Position numbers and translations under genes: made by a program. A DNA stretch of 63,984 nt, filler included, from a bacterium (GTDB taxonomy: Bacteria; UBA9089; CG2-30-40-21; SBAY01): assembly GCA_040757115.1 (NCBI GenBank). It is 8 parts of 8 records of this genome, joined end to end, with 100 filler letters (N's around TTAATTAATTAA, not from the genome) between each part and the next. Parts side by side here need not be neighbours in the genome. Positions count along the whole stretch, not along the records: positions 20,815 to 48,770 come from JBFLYA010000027.1; 7 more parts are not named here. One strand, 5' to 3'. The notes below the pieces were generated by a model, which did no database searches, had not been told where the DNA came from, and worked only from the letters and a program-made list of their open reading frames with translations. Below are positions 5,247 to 63,545 of the stretch, in pieces. Each line of letters begins with the position of its first letter. Position 1 is the stretch's first letter.

Positions 5247-5364
5247 ATATTTAAAAAATTCACTTGTATCCGAACATACTATTTTTGTGCCTTTTTAGGG
5301 ATATAAGTCAAGAAAAATATTTTTAAAAAAACTTAATTTTTTACTTGACATTTCACCATAAGAC

Positions 5365-5915
5365 TTTGTGAGTTGCAGACTCATGAGCGTTCTCCTGAAA
5401 ATGAATAGAATACGGATGACACGGATTAGACGGATGAGCACGGATTTTTTATTTTTTAGTAATCGGATTGAGCGGATTAATCGGACTTCTTTTCTGTTTT
5501 TTTATCTGCTCAATCCGCTAAATCCGCTTACTACTTATTTCCCTTATTGTAACCGTTCAGGTAATCCTTTACCGCAGAGACGCAGAGAAACAGAGAAGAA
5601 AATATCTTTTTTTCGTGTTTTTCGGTATTTAAAAAGGCTTAAAAACAGTTAGTCGAAAGTAAGTATTAAAAGATTATAAACAACGAAAGCCCCGAAATGC
5701 ACAAAAAAAGGGAATTTCTGTTTCTGGTGAATAGATTTTAATTTTTTCTCTGCGTCTCTGTGTCTCTGCGGTGAACGGTTACCCCTTATTTCCCTTTGCG
5801 TTCTTTGCGTGCTTGGCGTGAAACTTCCTTTCCCCTGAAAATCGGGGTTCGGGGATTCTTTTATTCCCGAGCCCCGAGTCCCGAGCCCCGAGCCCCGAGT
5901 CCCTTTATTTTCATT
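5365..5915 (-). repeat. Array of AGGAG/hairpin cassettes with nested MITE
   Basis: TTCTCCTGAAAAT at about 5390 and TTCCCCTGAAAAT at about 5830; hairpin ATG-AGT-ctgca-ACT-CAC; (CCGAGCC)n cargo. Confidence 0.7.
5549..5782. mobile_element. GTAAC...GTTAC MITE with 8-bp TSD
   Basis: CCCTTATT on both sides; arms CCGCAGAGACGCAGAG / CTCTGCGTCTCTGTGTCTCTGCGG. Confidence 0.85.
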
Positions 5916-6690
5916 CCCCTTGTTGTGTTTCTATTTTCTCACTATGTTGACGAAGTGCCTCTTTAAATCGTTCAGCCGCTTCATTATTTTGAAATTCGTC
6001 TAATCCTTGTGCTGATTCACCAAATGGATTTTTTTGCAAATTAGGCGAAGAAGGCTGTGGTGGTAACCCTTTTGAAAATTCCTGCTGAGCCTTTTCACTT
6101 TGTGATTGAAGTGCCTGGATAAATTTATCTCTTGCCTCTTTTTCTTTCTCAGTCATCGTGGTTGCTGAAGAGCCTGAAAATCCCTTATTTTTTTGCACGG
6201 CGACTTCAAAAGGATTACTTGGAGGAGATACCTCTCTTTGTGGTTTAATCTCAGGCACCCATTTTTGAGCCCATTGCTGTTCAAGCCAGGGAACAAACTC
6301 CTTATACTGAAACGGGGTCAAAGTTTGTTCGACATCTATTTTTGTCTTCTCTACAATTTCCACTGTTTTCTTATCCATATTATTTTTTTCGTCTTGCTTC
6401 TTCTCCATAGATAGTTTTTCATCTTTGAGTATCTCCTGCCATTCTTGTTGAAGGGTTTCTAATGCCTCTTTTTCTGCTTTAATAATCATCATCATCTTTT
6501 GGGTTTGCTGGGGAGTTAATGATAATCTCATCGTCATCTCATCCAAAAATGTAAAATCCGTAGCGAAATAACTAATCATTGGTCTTGTCCCAAAGCTATC
6601 TTTTTCTACCTTTTCACCTTCTTTAGCTAAAATCTGCTGTGCCATCCCCATGCTAATCATTAAAATAACCGTTACCATTATTTTTTTCAT
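5911..6690 (-). CDS. Exported helical hypothetical protein
   Basis: AGGAGG RBS, signal peptide, LSLTPQQ/LTPFQ repeats reminiscent of Spy/CpxP-like proteins. Confidence 0.75.
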   Translation of the reverse strand: MKKIMVTVILMISMGMAQQILAKEGEKVEKDSFGTRPMISYFATDFTFLDEMTMRLSLTPQQTQKMMMIIKAEKEALETLQQEWQEILKDEKLSMEKKQDEKNNMDKKTVEIVEKTKIDVEQTLTPFQYKEFVPWLEQQWAQKWVPEIKPQREVSPPSNPFEVAVQKNKGFSGSSATTMTEKEKEARDKFIQALQSQSEKAQQEFSKGLPPQPSSPNLQKNPFGESAQGLDEFQNNEAAERFKEALRQHSEKIETQQGE

Positions 6691-10145: not shown

Positions 10146-10148
10146 GGT

Positions 10149-10299
10149 TCCTCCTGAAAATGAGGAAGTAGAAAGTAGAGAGTAGAAAGTAAAGAAAACA
10201 TCACTGCTCACGCTTATCTCCCCATCTCCCACCTTCTATCTCCTACCTACTATTTTCATCCTCCTATGTGCCGAGTTGTCGGCATGGCCGTTTCTCCTA
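10149..10299 (-). repeat. Single AGGAG/hairpin cassette supplying the RBS of the permease
   Basis: Minus strand AGGAGAAACGGCC ATG-CCGA-caac-TCGG-CAC...ATGAAAAT-cargo-ATTTTCAGGAGG-aacc-TTG. Confidence 0.8.
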
Positions 10300-10491
10300 C
10301 AATTAGATTATATCATACCTAATCCATTATGTCAAAAGGATTTTGTGTCAATATTCAGAATCCCGTGTTTCAAAATTCTATNNNNNNNNNNNNNNNNNNN
10401 NNNNNNNNNNNNNNNNNNNNNNNNNTTAATTAATTAANNNNNNNNNNNNNNNNNNNNNNNNNNNNNNNNNNNNNNNNNNNNTAAAATTTTT

Positions 10492-15941: not shown

Positions 15942-15949
15942 CTGATATT

Positions 15950-16243
15950 CCTTCTGAAAATAAGGAAGTAGAAAGTAGAGAGTAGAAAGTAATGAAAACA
16001 TCATTCCTCACGCCTATCTCCTTACCTCCCACCTTCTATCTCCTACCACTATTTTCATCCTCCTTTCTCCTAAAAATAGCCGTGAGAATAGAACACGGAT
16101 GACACGGATTTAACGGATTTTCGCTGATTTTTTTCTCTTTTTTCTATCTTATATCTATCCGCGAATATCCGCATCATCAGCGTGCTATTATTTTTCATCG
16201 TCATTTGTGCCCACTCCCTGTGGACATGGCCGTTTCTCCTAAA
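15950..16243 (-). repeat. Two AGGAG cassettes in tandem
   Basis: ATG-TCCAC-aggga-GTGGG-CAC hairpin; cargos shared with 34260, 10160 and 63300. Confidence 0.75.
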
Positions 16244-16279
16244 AAAAGACCAAAGACCAACTTACCTACTCTCTACTTT

Positions 16280-26373: not shown

Positions 26374-26410
26374 CAAATTAAGATAACATATAGTATACTA
26401 TTTTCAGGAG

Positions 26411-31105: not shown

Positions 31106-31130
31106 TTATTTGGCTAAACACTTACGATTT

Positions 31131-31448
31131 GAGGAAAAACGGGCATGAGTCTGCGACTCACAAAGGGGGATGAAAATTAAGGGACTCGGGACTCGGGGCT
31201 CGGGATTCGGGAATAAAAGAATCCCCTAACCTCTTAATCTCCCGCCAGCGGGGAGATAAAAAAATAAAAATCTGTGTCCTCTGCGAAATCTGCGGATTAT
31301 TTTCAGGGGAAACGGACATGAGCTAGGGCTCACAAAGGGCAATGAAAATGGGAGAAGGACAACCCCCTAACCCCCTTTATTAAGGGGGAATTGCTGAGAG
31401 TTTCTTTCTTCCCGAATCCCGAGTCCCGAGTCCCGATTTTCAGGAGGA
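31131..31448 (+). repeat. Two AGGAG/hairpin cassettes in tandem, ending in the RBS of the next gene
   Basis: ATG-AGTC-tgc-GACT-CAC and ATG-AGC-tagg-GCT-CAC; terminal TTTTCAGGAGG then ATG 31456. Confidence 0.85.
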
Positions 31449-31455
31449 AGTAAAA

Positions 31456-32043
31456 ATGTTTGATGTAATGTTAATAAAGGAATTTTATACTGATTATCTG
31501 GTTAAATGGCATCAGGATGAGTATCTTGAGATTGAGAATTACGAAGAAATTTATCAGATTATTTATAACTTGCATTTGACTAATTATCGTTTGTGGCATC
31601 AAGAAGATATTGCTCGGAGAACAGATGTGGCTGATAGGGTTATTGCAGATGTAAAGCAGAAGATTGATAAGTTAAATCAGAATAGAAATGATACTATTGA
31701 AAAGATTGATGAATATCTATGCCAGATATTACACCCACAAAACCTTTCTTTGCCAATGAATTCAGAAACCCCGGGAAGTATTCTGGACAGAATGTCGATA
31801 CTTTCGCTTAAGATATACCATATGACTGAGGAGACAAAAAGGATAGATGTAGATTCTGAACATATAAAAACCTGCCAGGAAAAAGTCCATATCTTGAAAG
31901 AACAATTCGATGATTTAAAAAATTGCCTTGAGGTTTTGCTTGAGGAAATTTTTACTGGTAAGAAAAGACTTAAAGTCTATCGCCAATTTAAGATGTATAA
32001 TGACCCACGGCTAAATCCACAACTTCGAGAAATTACCCACTAA
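31456..32043 (+). CDS. DUF4254 family protein
   Basis: LWHQEDIAR, IDKLNQNRND, NSETPGSILDRMSI, YRQFKMYNDP. Confidence 0.9.
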   Translation: MFDVMLIKEFYTDYLVKWHQDEYLEIENYEEIYQIIYNLHLTNYRLWHQEDIARRTDVADRVIADVKQKIDKLNQNRNDTIEKIDEYLCQILHPQNLSLPMNSETPGSILDRMSILSLKIYHMTEETKRIDVDSEHIKTCQEKVHILKEQFDDLKNCLEVLLEEIFTGKKRLKVYRQFKMYNDPRLNPQLREITH

Positions 32044-34134: not shown

Positions 34135-34209
34135 ATTTTTTTCCCCATATAATCTCCATATTTCCTTCAGACACACGGAAAAAGGTTACCTGCTTTTATT
34201 ACCCCCCAG

Positions 34210-34506
34210 TCAGGAAAAACGGTCATCTCCACGACGTGGACACAAAGAACAATGAAAATAGCACGCTGATGACGCGGAGGTCGCGGATATTTCGCGGATA
34301 AAAAATATATTATAGAAAAATCCGCTAAAATCCGTTAAATCCGCGTTATCCGTGTGCTATTTTAACATTATTTTTCAGGAGAACGCTCATGAACCGTAGG
34401 TTCACAACAGGAGAATGAAAATAGGGGAAAAACAGGGTGGAGGAAAGATTTTCTCTCTACTCTCTACTCTCTACTTTCTACTCTCTACTTCCTATTTTCA
34501 TGAGAA
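34210..34506 (+). repeat. Two AGGAG/hairpin cassettes in tandem
   Basis: TCCAC-gac-GTGGA-CAC and ATG-AACC-gta-GGTT-CAC hairpins, ATGAAAAT...ATTTTCA brackets. Confidence 0.8.
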
Positions 34507-34584
34507 TTCCCTATTTCACTAACGCATTACCTTCACCCTATTTTTATTATTGACAAACTGTAAAGTAAATGGTATAGTTTAATT

Positions 34585-37885: not shown

Positions 37886-38449
37886 ATGATTGGTGCAAAT
37901 GATTTAAGACCAGGAATGACGATTGAATTGAATGGAGAGATTTTCTCCTGCACAGAATTCCAGCATATCAAGCCGGGTAAAGGAGGGGCATTTGTCCGAT
38001 TAAAATTAAAAAATTTTAGTACCGGCGCGGTTATAGATAAAACCGTTAGACCAGAGGAAAAATTCCCATTAGTCAGAATATCCCGCAAACCTATGCAATA
38101 TCTTTATCAGGAGGGAGGTAATTACTACTTTATGGATACCGAATCTTATGAACAATTCGGGCTCTCAAAAGATATACTAAGTAGTAATGTCAATTACCTG
38201 AAAGAGAATATGGAGGTAACGGTTTTATTCCATGATGAGACGATAATCGGCATAGAATTACCAGTAACGATAGAACTAAAGGTTATCACCACTGAACCAG
38301 GTTTTAAAGGAAATACCGTTTCAGGTGCAACTAAACAGGCAGAATTGGAAACAGGATTAAAGGTCCAGGTGCCTTTATTTGTAGAGGAAGGTGAAATCCT
38401 TAAAATCGATACTCGCACTGGAGAATATATAGAGAGGGTAAGAGGTTAG
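37886..38449 (+). CDS. efp: Elongation factor P
   Basis: HIKPGKGGAFVR, VPLFVEEGE, IDTRTGEY. Confidence 0.97.
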   Translation: MIGANDLRPGMTIELNGEIFSCTEFQHIKPGKGGAFVRLKLKNFSTGAVIDKTVRPEEKFPLVRISRKPMQYLYQEGGNYYFMDTESYEQFGLSKDILSSNVNYLKENMEVTVLFHDETIIGIELPVTIELKVITTEPGFKGNTVSGATKQAELETGLKVQVPLFVEEGEILKIDTRTGEYIERVRG

Positions 38450-38503: not shown

Positions 38504-39255
38504 GTTTCAGGAGAAACGGTCATGAGCCTGCGGCACACAAAGGGGGATGAAAATTAAGGGACTCGGGACTCGGGGCTCGGGATTCGGGAATAAAAGAATC
38601 CCCTAACCTTTTAATCTCCCGCCAGTGGGGAGATAAAAAAATAAAAATCTGTGTAATCTGCGAAATCTGCGGATATTTTTAGGAGAAACCAGGTATGAAC
38701 CTGCGGTTCACAAACGAGGATGAAAATTGAGCATAGAGATTAGAGATTAGCAAGAGTGCAGGTTCTAATTCACTAATTCTCTAATCTCTAATTAACTATT
38801 TTCAGGAGAAACGGACATGAGCCAAGGCTCACAAAGGGCAATGAAAATGGGAGAAGGACAACCCCCTAACCCCCTTTATTAAGGGGGAATATGTGTTCTA
38901 AACCAGAGGATACGAGTCTGTGGATACTATACTAATTCGCTAATCTCTAATTCACTAATTCGCTATTTTCAGGGGAAATAGTGGTAGGAGATAGAAGGTG
39001 GGAGGTAAGGAGATAAGCGGGAGGAGTGATGTTTTCTTTACTTTCTACTTTCTACTCTCTACTTTCTACTTCCTATTTTCAGGAGAAACGGACATGAGCC
39101 AAGGCTCACAAAGGGCAATGAAAATGGGAGAAGGACAACCCCCTAACCCCCTTTATTAAGGGGGAATATGTGTTCTAAACCAGAGGATACGAGTCTGTGG
39201 ATACTATACTAATTCGCTAATCTCTAATTCACTAATTCGCTATTTTCAGGGGAAA
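38504..39255 (+). repeat. Five-unit head-to-tail AGGAG cassette array
   Basis: Repeated TTTTCAGGAGAAACGGACATG...CACAAA...ATGAAAAT junctions separated by four different cargos; units 3 and 5 identical. Confidence 0.9.
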
Positions 39256-39620
39256 TGTATAACTGAAAGGTAATGAGTCTTGCGAAGGACTAAAATTTCC
39301 CATTTTTCATTTCCTATTTTACATTTTACATTTATTTTTCCTTTGCGTCTCTGCGATGAATTAGTCTAATCGCACAGGTGGGGATTTTTCCGTGTTTCAT
39401 CCGTGTCCATCTGTGGCTGAATAGTTACGATTTAGTTTATAATTCTTCGTGCCCTTCGTGTTCTTCGTGGTTTTAAAAGATGTGAGAAAGGTTAATCTAA
39501 CCGCACAGGTGGAAAAAATTACCTTTGCATCCTTTGCGTCCCCAAAAATTTATAAAAATTTTCTATTGACTTTTGGGAGAAAAGTATGATATACTATAAT
39601 TAGAATGAAACACAGGTGTG

Positions 39621-39884: not shown

Positions 39885-40108
39885 GACAGGTGAAACTTCC
39901 ATGCCCCTGTAGGGCACAAATGACGATGAAAATGTAGTTTTGTAACTCAAATAATTACAATAACTTACGAACATTTTCAAGGGAAATCGAACTGGATTCG
40001 TGGTTCGGGAAAGTATAGGACGCAGATAAACGCAGATTTTCAGGATTTTTAAATATACATCCTGATAATCTGCGAAAATCTGCGTCCCATAACCTATTTT
40101 CAGGAGAA
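39885..40108 (+). repeat. AGGAG cassette pair
   Basis: ATG-CCC-ctgta-GGG-CAC...ATGAAAAT; ends ATTTTCAGGAGAA. Confidence 0.7.
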
Positions 40109-40537
40109 TTACTTTGTCACCTTATTCCTGAGTGGACTTGGTCCCAGTTCTTGTATTTTATTTGTCATTTCTCGGGCGACTTCAGCGAATTTTGGTCCCA
40201 TTGAGGCACTCATATTGAACATTTCAAGGCGATTACCACCAATACCGGTTTCATCCAGTAGTTTTTTTGCTCTGGCAACACGGCGTTTTGCCTTGATATT
40301 GCCATCAATGAAATGGCAGTTTCCTTCCAGGCAACCCGCCACATAGACACCATCTGCCCCATCTTCAAATGCCTTCAACAGATACAAAATATCTACCTTG
40401 CCAGTGCAGGGCAATTTGATAATTTTAACATTAGCTGGGTAATTAAGTCTCATTGACCCAGCCAGGTCTGCCGCCCCGTAAGCACAATAATGACAGCAAA
40501 AAGCTACAATCTCGGGCTCAAAATTGTTATTAGTCAT
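40109..40537 (-). CDS. mvhD: Hydrogenase iron-sulfur subunit delta (MvhD/FlpD family)
   Basis: FCCHYCAYGAADLAG, PCTGKV, GCLEGNCHF. Confidence 0.92.
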   Translation of the reverse strand: MTNNNFEPEIVAFCCHYCAYGAADLAGSMRLNYPANVKIIKLPCTGKVDILYLLKAFEDGADGVYVAGCLEGNCHFIDGNIKAKRRVARAKKLLDETGIGGNRLEMFNMSASMGPKFAEVAREMTNKIQELGPSPLRNKVTK

Positions 40538-63207: not shown

Positions 63208-63292
63208 TAATGCTTCTATTATTCTACTATATTTCAGTTTAGATGTCAAGGATAAATCAAAAGTAGGAGTAATGGGTCAGTGAAATGGGGGA

Positions 63293-63545
63293 TTCTCCTG
63301 AAAATAAGGAAGTAGAAAGTAGAGAGTAGAAAGTAGAAAGTAAGGAAAACATCACTCCTCACGCCTATCTCCTTACCTTCCACCTTCTATCTCCTACCTA
63401 CTATTTTCATCCTCATTTGTGAACCCACGGTTCATGAGCGTTCTCCTGAAAATAGTTAATTAGAGATTAGAGAATTAGAACCTGCACTCTTGCTAATCTC
63501 TAATCTCCAATCTCTAATCTCTATGCCCGATTTTCATCCTCCTCG
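63293..63545 (-). repeat. Two AGGAG cassettes in tandem
   Basis: ATG-AACC-gtg-GGTT-CAC hairpin; cargos match those at 38730 and 38978. Confidence 0.8.

Follow-up and report, generated by a model that had tools for sequence, protein, structure and literature searches.

The window analysed here, a stretch of 63,984 nucleotides of the bacterial genome assembly GCA_040757115.1, contains several arrays of short repeated units, and the array at positions 38504-39255 is the main subject of this work. A full unit consists of a GAAA core, a structured left-end module of about 42 nt (module A), a variable hairpin that we call the cargo, and a short right tip. We consider it likely that each array is a head-to-tail stack of small non-autonomous elements that either descend from an insertion sequence (IS) of the IS110 family with IS1111-like architecture or parasitise it.

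The closest described systems are members of the IS1111 group that use a seekRNA or bridge RNA, such as ISEc11, ISKpn4 and ISPa11 (PMC11187229, PMC11208160). A short left end, a subterminal inverted repeat of 7-17 bp and a long right end that bears the RNA characterise the group (PMC11208160), and the complete elements related to the window units were found to have this architecture. Both also possess a recombinase with DEDD and PF02371 domains, a non-coding RNA downstream of the recombinase gene, RNA segments matching junction or target, and a core shared by the junctions. There are differences, however. The left inverted repeat of the present elements lies about 40 nt inside, behind a module with a covarying hairpin, the donor joint nearly equals the target, and the units in the window exist only in a form that lacks both an open reading frame (ORF) and a guide. 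Moreover, the intact recombinase found here has 405 aa whereas IS1111-type enzymes have 330-350 aa (PMC11187229), and because of this excess we do not assign the elements to a subgroup.

IS621 (PMC11208160; structure 8wt6) resembles the present elements in the RNA-guided recombination of a circular donor with a target, in its short core and in the covariation of guide and junction. Its RNA is encoded in the left end, its core comprises 2 nt and its targets are repetitive extragenic palindromic (REP) sequences, whereas the present elements have their RNA region in the right end, repeat a GAAA core and are targeted to ribosome-binding or start-codon sequences. MITEPpu9, which resembles the miniature transposable elements with inverted repeats (MITEs) and accompanies the IS110-family element ISPpu9 (PMC12288879), is likewise short and non-autonomous, with shared ends and extra copies that are sometimes in tandem. 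It carries a small RNA gene and has 8 copies. In contrast, the units considered here number more than 100, carry interchangeable hairpins, are stacked in arrays and occur in many phyla. They are MITE-like in that both ends are shared with complete elements, no ORF is present and many copies exist. Finally, tandem non-coding units beside IS110 genes (bioRxiv 10.64898/2026.08.14.744561) share the tandem arrangement, the matches to donor arms and the lack of target immunity, but they adjoin a transposase, while the present arrays are dispersed, far from any transposase, and have target-like junctions.

The enzyme family and the RNA-guided mechanism are thus known (PMC11208160, PMC11187229), contrary to a preliminary description of the window in which the system was not recognised as a described family, and MITEPpu9 and the IS110-adjacent tandem units are precedents. 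What seems to be new is that many phyla share the structured left-end module, that the donor joint is nearly identical to the target at translation starts, and that arrays of guide-less hairpins are spread through the genome. We did not find the left-end module and the arrays described in the literature searched; the supplements of PMC11208160 and PMC11187229, as well as ISfinder, may list members of this subgroup.

The units and their left-end module

The array at 38504-39255 is a series of units in head-to-tail order. Following the GAAA core, module A continues with C-N3-CATG, a small hairpin with U-A and G-C closing pairs, and CACAAA-N5-ATGAAAAT; core and module together read GAAAC-N3-CATG, hairpin, CACAAA-N5-ATGAAAAT. 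The cargo opens with GAAAAT and closes with ATTTTC, and the tip AG-NN leads into the GAAA of the next unit. Units are 110-180 nt long and contain no conserved ORFs. The parts of the array are given below; bit scores refer to R1, a covariance model of module A built from 9 copies.

38504-38512, plus strand: left junction of the array, GTTTCAG-GA, directly 5' of the first GAAA core
38513-38554, plus strand: module A copy 1, the left-end module, with GAAAC-GGT-CATG, a hairpin at 38523-38537 and CACAAA-N5-ATGAAAAT (74.4 bits)
38549-38682, plus strand: cargo 1, in which composite hairpins have arms made of ACTCGGG and ATCTGCG repeats; it starts with GAAAAT and is closed by ATTTTTAG
38685-38727, plus strand: module A copy 2, stem AACC/GGTT, preceded by GA and the GAAA core (65.9 bits)
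38722-38805, plus strand: cargo 2, a hairpin with TAGAGAT heptad arms, from GAAAAT to ATTTTCAG; it recurs at about 63460-63540 on the minus strand
38808-38848, plus strand: module A copy 3, stem AGCC/GGCT (72.0 bits)
38843-38972, plus strand: cargo 3, a CCCCCTAACCCCC/GGGGG hairpin with a CTAATTC-repeat arm, ending in ATTTTCAG; it recurs at 31342
38975-39082, plus strand: unit without module A, in which the GAAA core is fused to a GGTAGGAGATAGAAGG/CTTTCTACTCTCTAC hairpin (G.U-rich on the plus strand), ending in ATTTTCAG
39085-39125, plus strand: module A copy 4, the same as copy 3 (68.2 bits), part of a 181-bp duplicate
39120-39255, plus strand: cargo 4, the same as cargo 3, with the right tip ATTTTCAG-GG-GAAA, at which the array ends

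The duplicate is exact and comprises 38798-38978 and 39075-39255.

When up to 2 mismatches were allowed, the pattern ATTTTCAGGNGAAA matched the window 29 times against 6.1 expected, and none of 100 shuffles reached 29. R1 gave 17 matches at E ≤ 1, of which 4 were weak and 13 had E ≤ 0.001 (at 5346, 10248, 16187, 31122, 31295, 34202, 34366, 38499, 38672, 38794, 39071, 39878 and 63399). All 13 are in the same orientation as the upstream gene, at each of 7 loci. The preliminary description had reported tandem units at these seven loci by name, with the stem variants AGCC/GGCT, AACC/GGTT, AGTC/GACT, CCGA/TCGG, TCCAC/GTGGA and CCC/GGG, and with a few cargos reappearing at distant places in different orders. 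All of this was seen again: the stem variants are present, and the same cargo hairpins do recur at distant loci while their order differs.

The joints between units follow a simple rule. In the window GAAA follows every right tip and opens every module A, and all 37 tip-module joints that were counted read NN-GAAAC, one of them in the form AAAAC. The exact sequence ATTTTCAG was found at 87 sites in the window and in 20 stretches of G001, the nearest genome; at 40 of these sites module A comes next and at 15 an ORF starts within about 20 nt.

It had further been claimed that pairing is kept while the stem sequence varies, and covariation tests bear this out in two sets of copies. Among 104 copies of this genome family 92.1% of the stem cells were paired, compared with 73.0% after shuffling, and 103 double-sided changes were counted. 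The corresponding values for 48 copies of other phyla were 94.7%, 63.4% and 81. No shuffle out of 500 reached the observed value in either set; both alignments had been fitted to the model, a procedure that biases them towards the structure. A count made independently of any alignment gave at least 5 consecutive Watson-Crick pairs in 70 of 115 distinct foreign copies among the matches listed, against 54 of 2300 shuffled inner sequences.

The stem of module A is almost purely Watson-Crick, with G.U in 3 of 284 cells of the 48-copy foreign alignment. The cargo hairpins, read on the sense strand, have 260 G.U among 1811 pairs, and 40 of 51 fold better on that strand, by a mean of 6.1 kcal/mol; as many copies are related, the strand and G.U counts of the cargos and the G.U count of module A are not independent observations. 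They hint at a constraint on module A at the level of DNA or of a strict helix, possibly because it is a signal for the recombinase, and at cargos that, as RNA hairpins in leaders and trailers, are either tolerated or put to use.

In a scan of the window with Rfam only 6S RNA reached the threshold, and no family matched module A at E ≤ 10 between 38400 and 40200. Several other assignments of module A were considered and rejected. By eye, the unit does not fit the consensus of hammerhead or hairpin ribozyme cores, and Rfam gave no match. A leader peptide does not fit, the ORFs from the conserved ATG stopping at varying places, sometimes after 2-4 codons (by eye). Neither a CsrA-type GGA decoy nor a Shine-Dalgarno mimic agrees with the replacement of AGGAG, the form in the window's genus, by AGATG in the related genome G004. 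Pairing of the N3 after GAAAC with the N5 before ATGAAAAT showed no covariation by eye. A closing stem of ATTTTC and GAAAAT around module A would compete with closure of the cargo by the same bases, and the first units of arrays have no upstream ATTTTC. For these two reasons we take ATTTTC/GAAAAT as the inverted repeat of the element.

Complete elements and their guide regions

Module A is not confined to the lineage of the window. An exact-pattern scan of one genome per species found it in at least 120 stretches from many phyla, including Nitrospirota/Thermodesulfovibrionia, Syntrophales, Smithella, Bacteroidota, Cloacimonadota, Nitrospinota, Planctomycetota, Synergistia and others. Among the matches listed, an ATTTTC tip lies within 250 nt downstream of 64 of the 115 distinct foreign copies and upstream of 13. 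The foreign tips often stand directly before ATGAAA or GTGAAA, the start of a real gene.

The decisive observation concerns what follows the module. In 9 of 127 pattern matches, again among those listed, an IS110-type ORF begins about 35-80 nt after module A. These ORFs match Pfam PF01548 and PF02371, or PF01548 alone where the ORF is truncated, and the NCBIfam model 'IS110 family RNA-guided transposase' gave 224.5 and 202.2 bits at a cut-off of 140. The recombinase of locus L122 also matched the sequence of the IS621 transposase in PDB (E 3.6e-11). The preliminary description had proposed a search for copies with a full recombinase ORF as cargo, and in other genomes this search succeeded; of the several origins that it had offered, an IS110-like one is therefore favoured, module A standing directly before IS110-family recombinase genes. 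It had also noted that no cognate enzyme is identifiable in the window, and none was found.

Complete elements could be delimited in several cases. One Bacteroidales metagenome-assembled genome (MAG) contains three identical copies of 1495 bp that start with module A and end in ...ACATGAAAA; each is flanked by different sequence, with the start of a gene as the right flank. A deltaproteobacterial element (L157) begins TA|GAAAC... and ends ...ATTTTCAG|AAGAAAG, and the same MAG harbours an ORF-less derivative (L077) that has kept module A and about 220 nt of the right end. When metagenome contigs were scanned with the invariant core of the guide region described below, 7 loci were found. Each of the 5 that are intact upstream is complete, with the RNA region and ATTTTCAG in addition to module A and an ORF, and R1 matches 5 of the 7. 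A single ORF among these metagenome elements is intact; its 405 aa include both Pfam domains. The recombinase with a DEDD RuvC-like domain (PF01548) and PF02371 is present in L122, L145, L157 and L200, and in L157, L200, L196 and L198 a left end of about 110-120 nt is combined with a right end of about 250-330 nt that holds the RNA region. The subterminal inverted repeat is the 7-bp pair TGAAAAT/ATTTTCA, the left copy of which is unusually far (about 40 nt) from the end. The order of a complete element is thus GAAA core, module A, DEDD recombinase gene, guide region of about 107 nt, ATTTTCAG-NN and GAAA core.

Module A and the ATTTTCAG-NN tip are common to complete elements and window units. 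The latter keep module A, a variable hairpin closed by the 7-bp TGAAAAT/ATTTTCA pair and the right tip, and have neither ORF nor guide. Because no recombinase ORF was found in or beside the window arrays, we class the units as non-autonomous relatives rather than copies of the IS.

The guide region, a conserved non-coding stretch shared by the right ends, is composed of GGTCG, a stem-loop, segment 1, TGACC, AATGTTGCCATAGAGCACG, segment 2 and TTTT; in three elements (L053, L199 and L200) it had no match in Rfam. Both segments reproduce junction sequences of the element to which they belong, and vary in step with these. Ten elements were compared, nine of them distinct since two are copies of one IS. 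In 9 of the 10, the dinucleotide of segment 2 equals that between CAG and GAAA at the right end, although six different values occur (AA, AG, AT, GT, GG and GA). For the 3 nt to the left of the core, agreement with segment 1 is full in 6 of 8 elements and extends to 2 of 3 nt in the remaining 2. The core of L199 is CAAA in the element and its segment 1 likewise contains CAAAC. L077, though without an ORF, has guides of its own that match its own junctions, with the full element L157 in the same MAG. Short RNA segments that match target and donor are the published signature of bridge and seek RNAs (PMC11187229, PMC11208160).

A guide region was also found in the lineage of the window. Contig C572 of G001 carries the last codons of an ORF, a guide region, ATTTTCAG and then three module A units. 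Its segments AGGAGAAAC and CAGGAGAAA correspond to the window junction ATTTTCAGGAGAAAC, that is ATTTTCAG-GA-GAAAC. This was the one copy of the guide region found among 24 genomes of the phylum, and models R2 and R3 found none in the window, a negative result that is weak since 150 of several thousand first-look candidates were scored per genome. In G001, therefore, one guide region was found for at least 137 modules.

A few observations on the foreign elements may be added. The recombinase frame is interrupted in L122, L162 and L169 (from one Bacteroidales MAG) and in L145. In L122 the break follows a run of nine A, 310 codons in, and the conserved C-terminal motif resumes in another frame; this could reflect programmed slippage or a homopolymer error of the assembly. 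Mini-elements of Bacteroidota (L060, L071, L074, L089 and L090) end in CATG-N-GTTCCAT...; apart from a G.A/A.G step, this sequence could pair over most of its length with the 5' ATGAAAC-N3-CATG of module A, and an AT-rich stretch lies between this end and the ATGAAA of the gene. Such long-range pairing of the ends was not seen in the window's lineage. G001 possesses other IS110-family elements as well (L183 on C586 and L186 on C212), which are of the type with a long left end and lack module A; the left end on C586 contains GAGAAAC, a word of the units' junction.

Origin and mobility of the arrays

In the genes on either side of the main array, G001 and the window share 97-99% identity; G001 contains at least 137 copies of module A, many of them at contig ends; G003 and G004, from two other genera of the family, contain 35 and 37. 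The arrays of the window and of G001 differ at all 3 loci that can be compared. The spacer between efp and the 6S RNA gene has no array in G001 and reads GTTTCAGAAGAAAC where that of the window starts. The spacer at 34.1-34.5 kb has wholly different content, and the window array 34202-34507 is absent there. At 31.4 kb a complex deletion separates the two genomes. As the two strains differ at every comparable locus, the arrays turn over fast between close strains. Public contigs contain many alternative joints, so modules are combined differently elsewhere.

By analogy with the described systems, the recombinase would connect the element's right tip and left end, with the GAAA core at the joint, the guide RNA would pair with this donor joint and with the target, and the element would be inserted at the target. 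The joint, TTTCAG-GA-GAAAC or more generally TTTCAG-NN-GAAAC, nearly equals the target, a CAG/AGG-GA-GAAA-like ribosome-binding sequence or an ATGAAA start-codon sequence (xxx-GAAA), so that each insertion would recreate a usable site at both new junctions. Repeated insertion would then lead to tandem arrays just upstream of genes; the displaced sequence would be restored by the element and the translation signals would be kept. The preliminary description had suggested that insertion regenerates its own target, an idea that the analysis supports. The guide regions of related elements copy the junction sequence. An example may be L202 (BLAB01000001.1), whose occupied site ...CAGGT|GAAAGAA... 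has a GTG start derived in part from the right tip of the element. Judged from the sequence, the empty site would read ATGAAAGAA... with an ATG start codon.

As both gene and guide are lacking from the window units, movement of these would depend on factors supplied in trans. In the IS1111 group mini-elements composed of the ends only can indeed be moved in this way: a mini-IS with 84 bp of the left and 71 bp of the right end was mobilised by an IS1111-type transposase and its seekRNA (PMC11187229). An intact partner in the window's lineage would be expected to carry the guides GGAGAAAC and CAGGAGAAA. In a tandem array the joint of an excised circle would look the same as the joint between two units. 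The analysis demonstrates the shared ends, the enzyme family, the covariation of guide and junction, the copy numbers and the turnover between strains; mobilisation in trans, present activity in this lineage, stacking by re-insertion, the exchange of cargos and the role of the module A hairpin are inferences.

A more far-reaching proposal is tentative, and we rather doubt it. The elements might form an RNA-guided IS110/IS1111-type lineage that spans phyla and whose donor joint is its own target. Guide-less cassettes of this lineage might extend themselves and rewrite 5' leaders throughout the genome, and the hairpin of module A, its pairing kept almost without G.U, might serve the recombinase at the left end as a structure-specific DNA signal not recognised before.

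Several points weigh against miniature IS110-related elements. The window contains no recombinase gene and, according to R2 and R3, no guide region. The element in G001 is a 3' stump at the end of a contig; its right tip and 29 of 37 unit junctions read CAGGG-GAAA, one mismatch from the CAGGA-GAAA of segment 2. No guide region was found in G003 and G004, with 150 candidates scored in each and assemblies that are 93-94% complete. Nor did G001-G005 yield a close homologue of the recombinase of 405 aa: what matched best, at 36% identity, belongs to a different IS110 element, and the PF01548 and PF02371 matches in G001, where a recombinase N-terminus was looked for, belong to other IS110 elements without module A. 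The cargo hairpins share nothing with the interior of full elements, and for this reason the units cannot be simple deletion derivatives. No clean pair of filled and empty sites was found, the 3 comparable loci of window and G001 differing by complex changes, and the arrays could also grow and be shuffled by ordinary recombination between repeats. Finally, no public contig (from three DNA runs of one study) spans the main array, so the number and order of its units have no independent confirmation.

It might therefore be thought that the units are dead relics, descended from an IS family and now changed by homologous recombination, slippage or gene conversion between repeats without any recombinase. 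This is the main rival explanation, although we regard it as unlikely. It would account for the lack of an intact cognate recombinase in G001-G005, for a guide region seen once, at a contig end and with a mismatch to most junctions, for differences between window and G001 that are complex deletions and replacements instead of clean gains of units, and for the exact 181-bp duplicate. It is less easily reconciled with the very high and dispersed copy number in G001 (at least 137, many at contig ends), with the precise placement of units at ribosome-binding or start sites (an ORF start comes after 15 of the 87 ATTTTCAG tips), and with a conserved junction that equals the guide segments of an element stump in the same genome. 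Since dispersal, placement and junction all need site-specific insertion in the past, relics would concern the present state of the arrays and not their origin.

Quite improbable, in our view, is that module A is primarily an RNA element of the host (for instance a ribozyme, a protein-binding decoy, a processing signal or a 5' leader) that served IS110 elements as a preferred landing site or was captured by them. In favour of this, the hairpin covaries, units have the same orientation as genes and are frequently situated in 5' leaders, and the better folding of 40 of 51 cargos on the sense strand with 260 of 1811 pairs being G.U points to selection or tolerance at the RNA level. However, segment 1 copies the outer left junction, which places module A inside the mobile unit and not in its target. 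The genes downstream are unrelated to each other, Rfam offers no family, and G.U in 3 of 284 stem cells is unusual for an RNA helix. The change from AGGAG in the window's genus to AGATG in G004 shows that a Shine-Dalgarno or GGA-decoy role is not conserved, and the short ORFs from the conserved ATG stop at varying places (by eye).

REP sequences and bacterial interspersed mosaic elements (BIMEs) with their REP-associated tyrosine transposases (RAYTs), as well as the modular BOX-type repeats, are abundant, modular, hairpin-forming and intergenic, and are transcribed with neighbouring genes. The units described here have the same abundance, modularity and hairpins, but differ in the associated enzyme and in the logic of their junctions. 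It is very improbable that they are REP/BIME-like or IS200/IS605-derived palindromes moved by a Y1 (HUH) transposase, or cassettes of the integron type, both of which the preliminary description had considered. Hairpins are present and Y1_Tnp genes do occur in G001 (9 matches), G004 (9) and G003 (2, one below the cut-off), but module A was found at none of the 4 Y1_Tnp loci examined. The adjacent enzyme is of the IS110 type in 9 of 127 foreign matches (among those listed) and in 5 of 5 complete elements, and a GAAA core at the unit boundaries with matches to a guide RNA is a signature of IS110 and not of HUH or integron systems. Integron attC sites have a core of the GTTRRRY type and a nearby IntI integrase, whereas the junction here is CAG-NN-GAAAC; no search for an integrase was made. 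Equally hard to credit is a tandem arrangement that arose when short-read assembly strung scattered repeats together, for although the exact 181-bp duplicate, a scaffold gap beside another array and public contigs that break at every unit with many alternative joints might suggest it, tandem units were assembled independently in G001, G003, G004 and unrelated MAGs (L090, L120 and L139), and such an artefact would touch the order and number of the units but not their nature.

Setting of the arrays, further repeats and implications

The main array lies in a spacer of 1.65 kb between efp (37886-38449, plus strand) and a minus-strand gene that ends at 40109. In the middle of this spacer is a 6S RNA gene (Rfam RF00013, 39620-39818, plus strand, 79.2 bits), flanked on both sides by unit arrays. 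A promoter-like pair, TTGACT ... TATACT, was seen by eye about 25-55 nt upstream of the 6S RNA gene. The other arrays of the window, with their R1 scores, are the following.

39887-40109, plus strand: short array that follows the 6S RNA gene, the second in this spacer; CAG-GT-GAAA is succeeded by module A copy 5 at 39892-39933 (stem CCCC/GGGG; 61.0 bits), a small cargo ending in ATTTTCAA and a module-less hairpin unit ending in ATTTTCAG-GA-GAAT
31122-31458, plus strand: array of two units (72.3 and 70.9 bits), the last tip of which, ATTTTCAG-GAGGAA, is the ribosome-binding site of an ORF starting at 31456
34202-34507, plus strand: array of two units between a terminator and a promoter, one with a weak module A that has ATC for ATG (29.3 and 63.2 bits)
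5346-5973, minus strand: degenerate units (28.6 and 17.8 bits), in which module A is weak at 5346-5407 and partial at 5903-5973; right tips were seen at 5842 and 5402
10148-10308, minus strand: single unit, stem CCGA/TCGG, with the tip ATTTTCAG-GAGGAA 8 nt before a TTG-initiated ORF of 395 codons (46.7 bits)
15948-16250, minus strand: two units (60.2 and 20.8 bits), one with the stem TCCAC/GTGGG and one in which AGGAGAAAGGAGGATGAAAAT is all that is left of the module; an ATG-initiated ORF follows the tip ATTTTCAG-AAGGAA at a distance of 12 nt
63292-63545, minus strand: two hairpin cargos, one module A (63399-63458; 66.4 bits) and the right tip ATTTTCAG-GAGAAT

The tip ATTTTCAG-GAGGAA provides the ribosome-binding site of the ORFs at 31456 and, on the minus strand, 10161 and 15961. 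Solo right tips, ATTTTCAG-GAGGTG... and ATTTTCAG-GAGATATAATG, are located at 26400 (plus strand) and 19710 (minus strand), directly before long ORFs. Module A is not present in their vicinity, and these tips may represent scars or minimal remnants at ribosome-binding sites. A run of N, that is a scaffold gap, is present at about 10382-10400, just upstream of the single unit at 10148-10308. The assembly seems to be broken by repeats of this kind, as is that of G001 with its 770 contigs.

Further repeat families were noted at 39286-39520, 5550-5780 (minus strand) and 46282, where tandem repeats of 7-9 nt form long hairpins; examples are the CAGAGAC/GTCTCTG arms and the CCGTGTCCATCTGTGGCTGAATAGTTAC family. 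Their summed contig depth is up to about 96,000 compared with about 300 for unique DNA, figures that are sums over repeats and unfit as copy numbers. These families are not explained by the IS110 model. The phylum to which the window belongs is small and little sampled (24 species-level genomes were searched), and groundwater is given as the habitat in the run listing.

Recombinases with bridge or seek RNAs are under development as programmable tools for writing genomes, while their natural behaviour is still being mapped. The elements described here point to a widespread subgroup with a compact left-end module, the hairpin of which is conserved in structure and not in sequence. Guide-less mini-elements in about a hundred copies per genome, set against a single guide locus, would represent natural mobilisation in trans. 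A choice of targets at translation start signals, which would be rebuilt by the element, would tolerate and even promote repeated insertion. The arrays would account for the assembly of genomes of this group into hundreds of contigs, and a class of intergenic repeats that is abundant in groundwater and anaerobic bacteria can now be given a concrete annotation.

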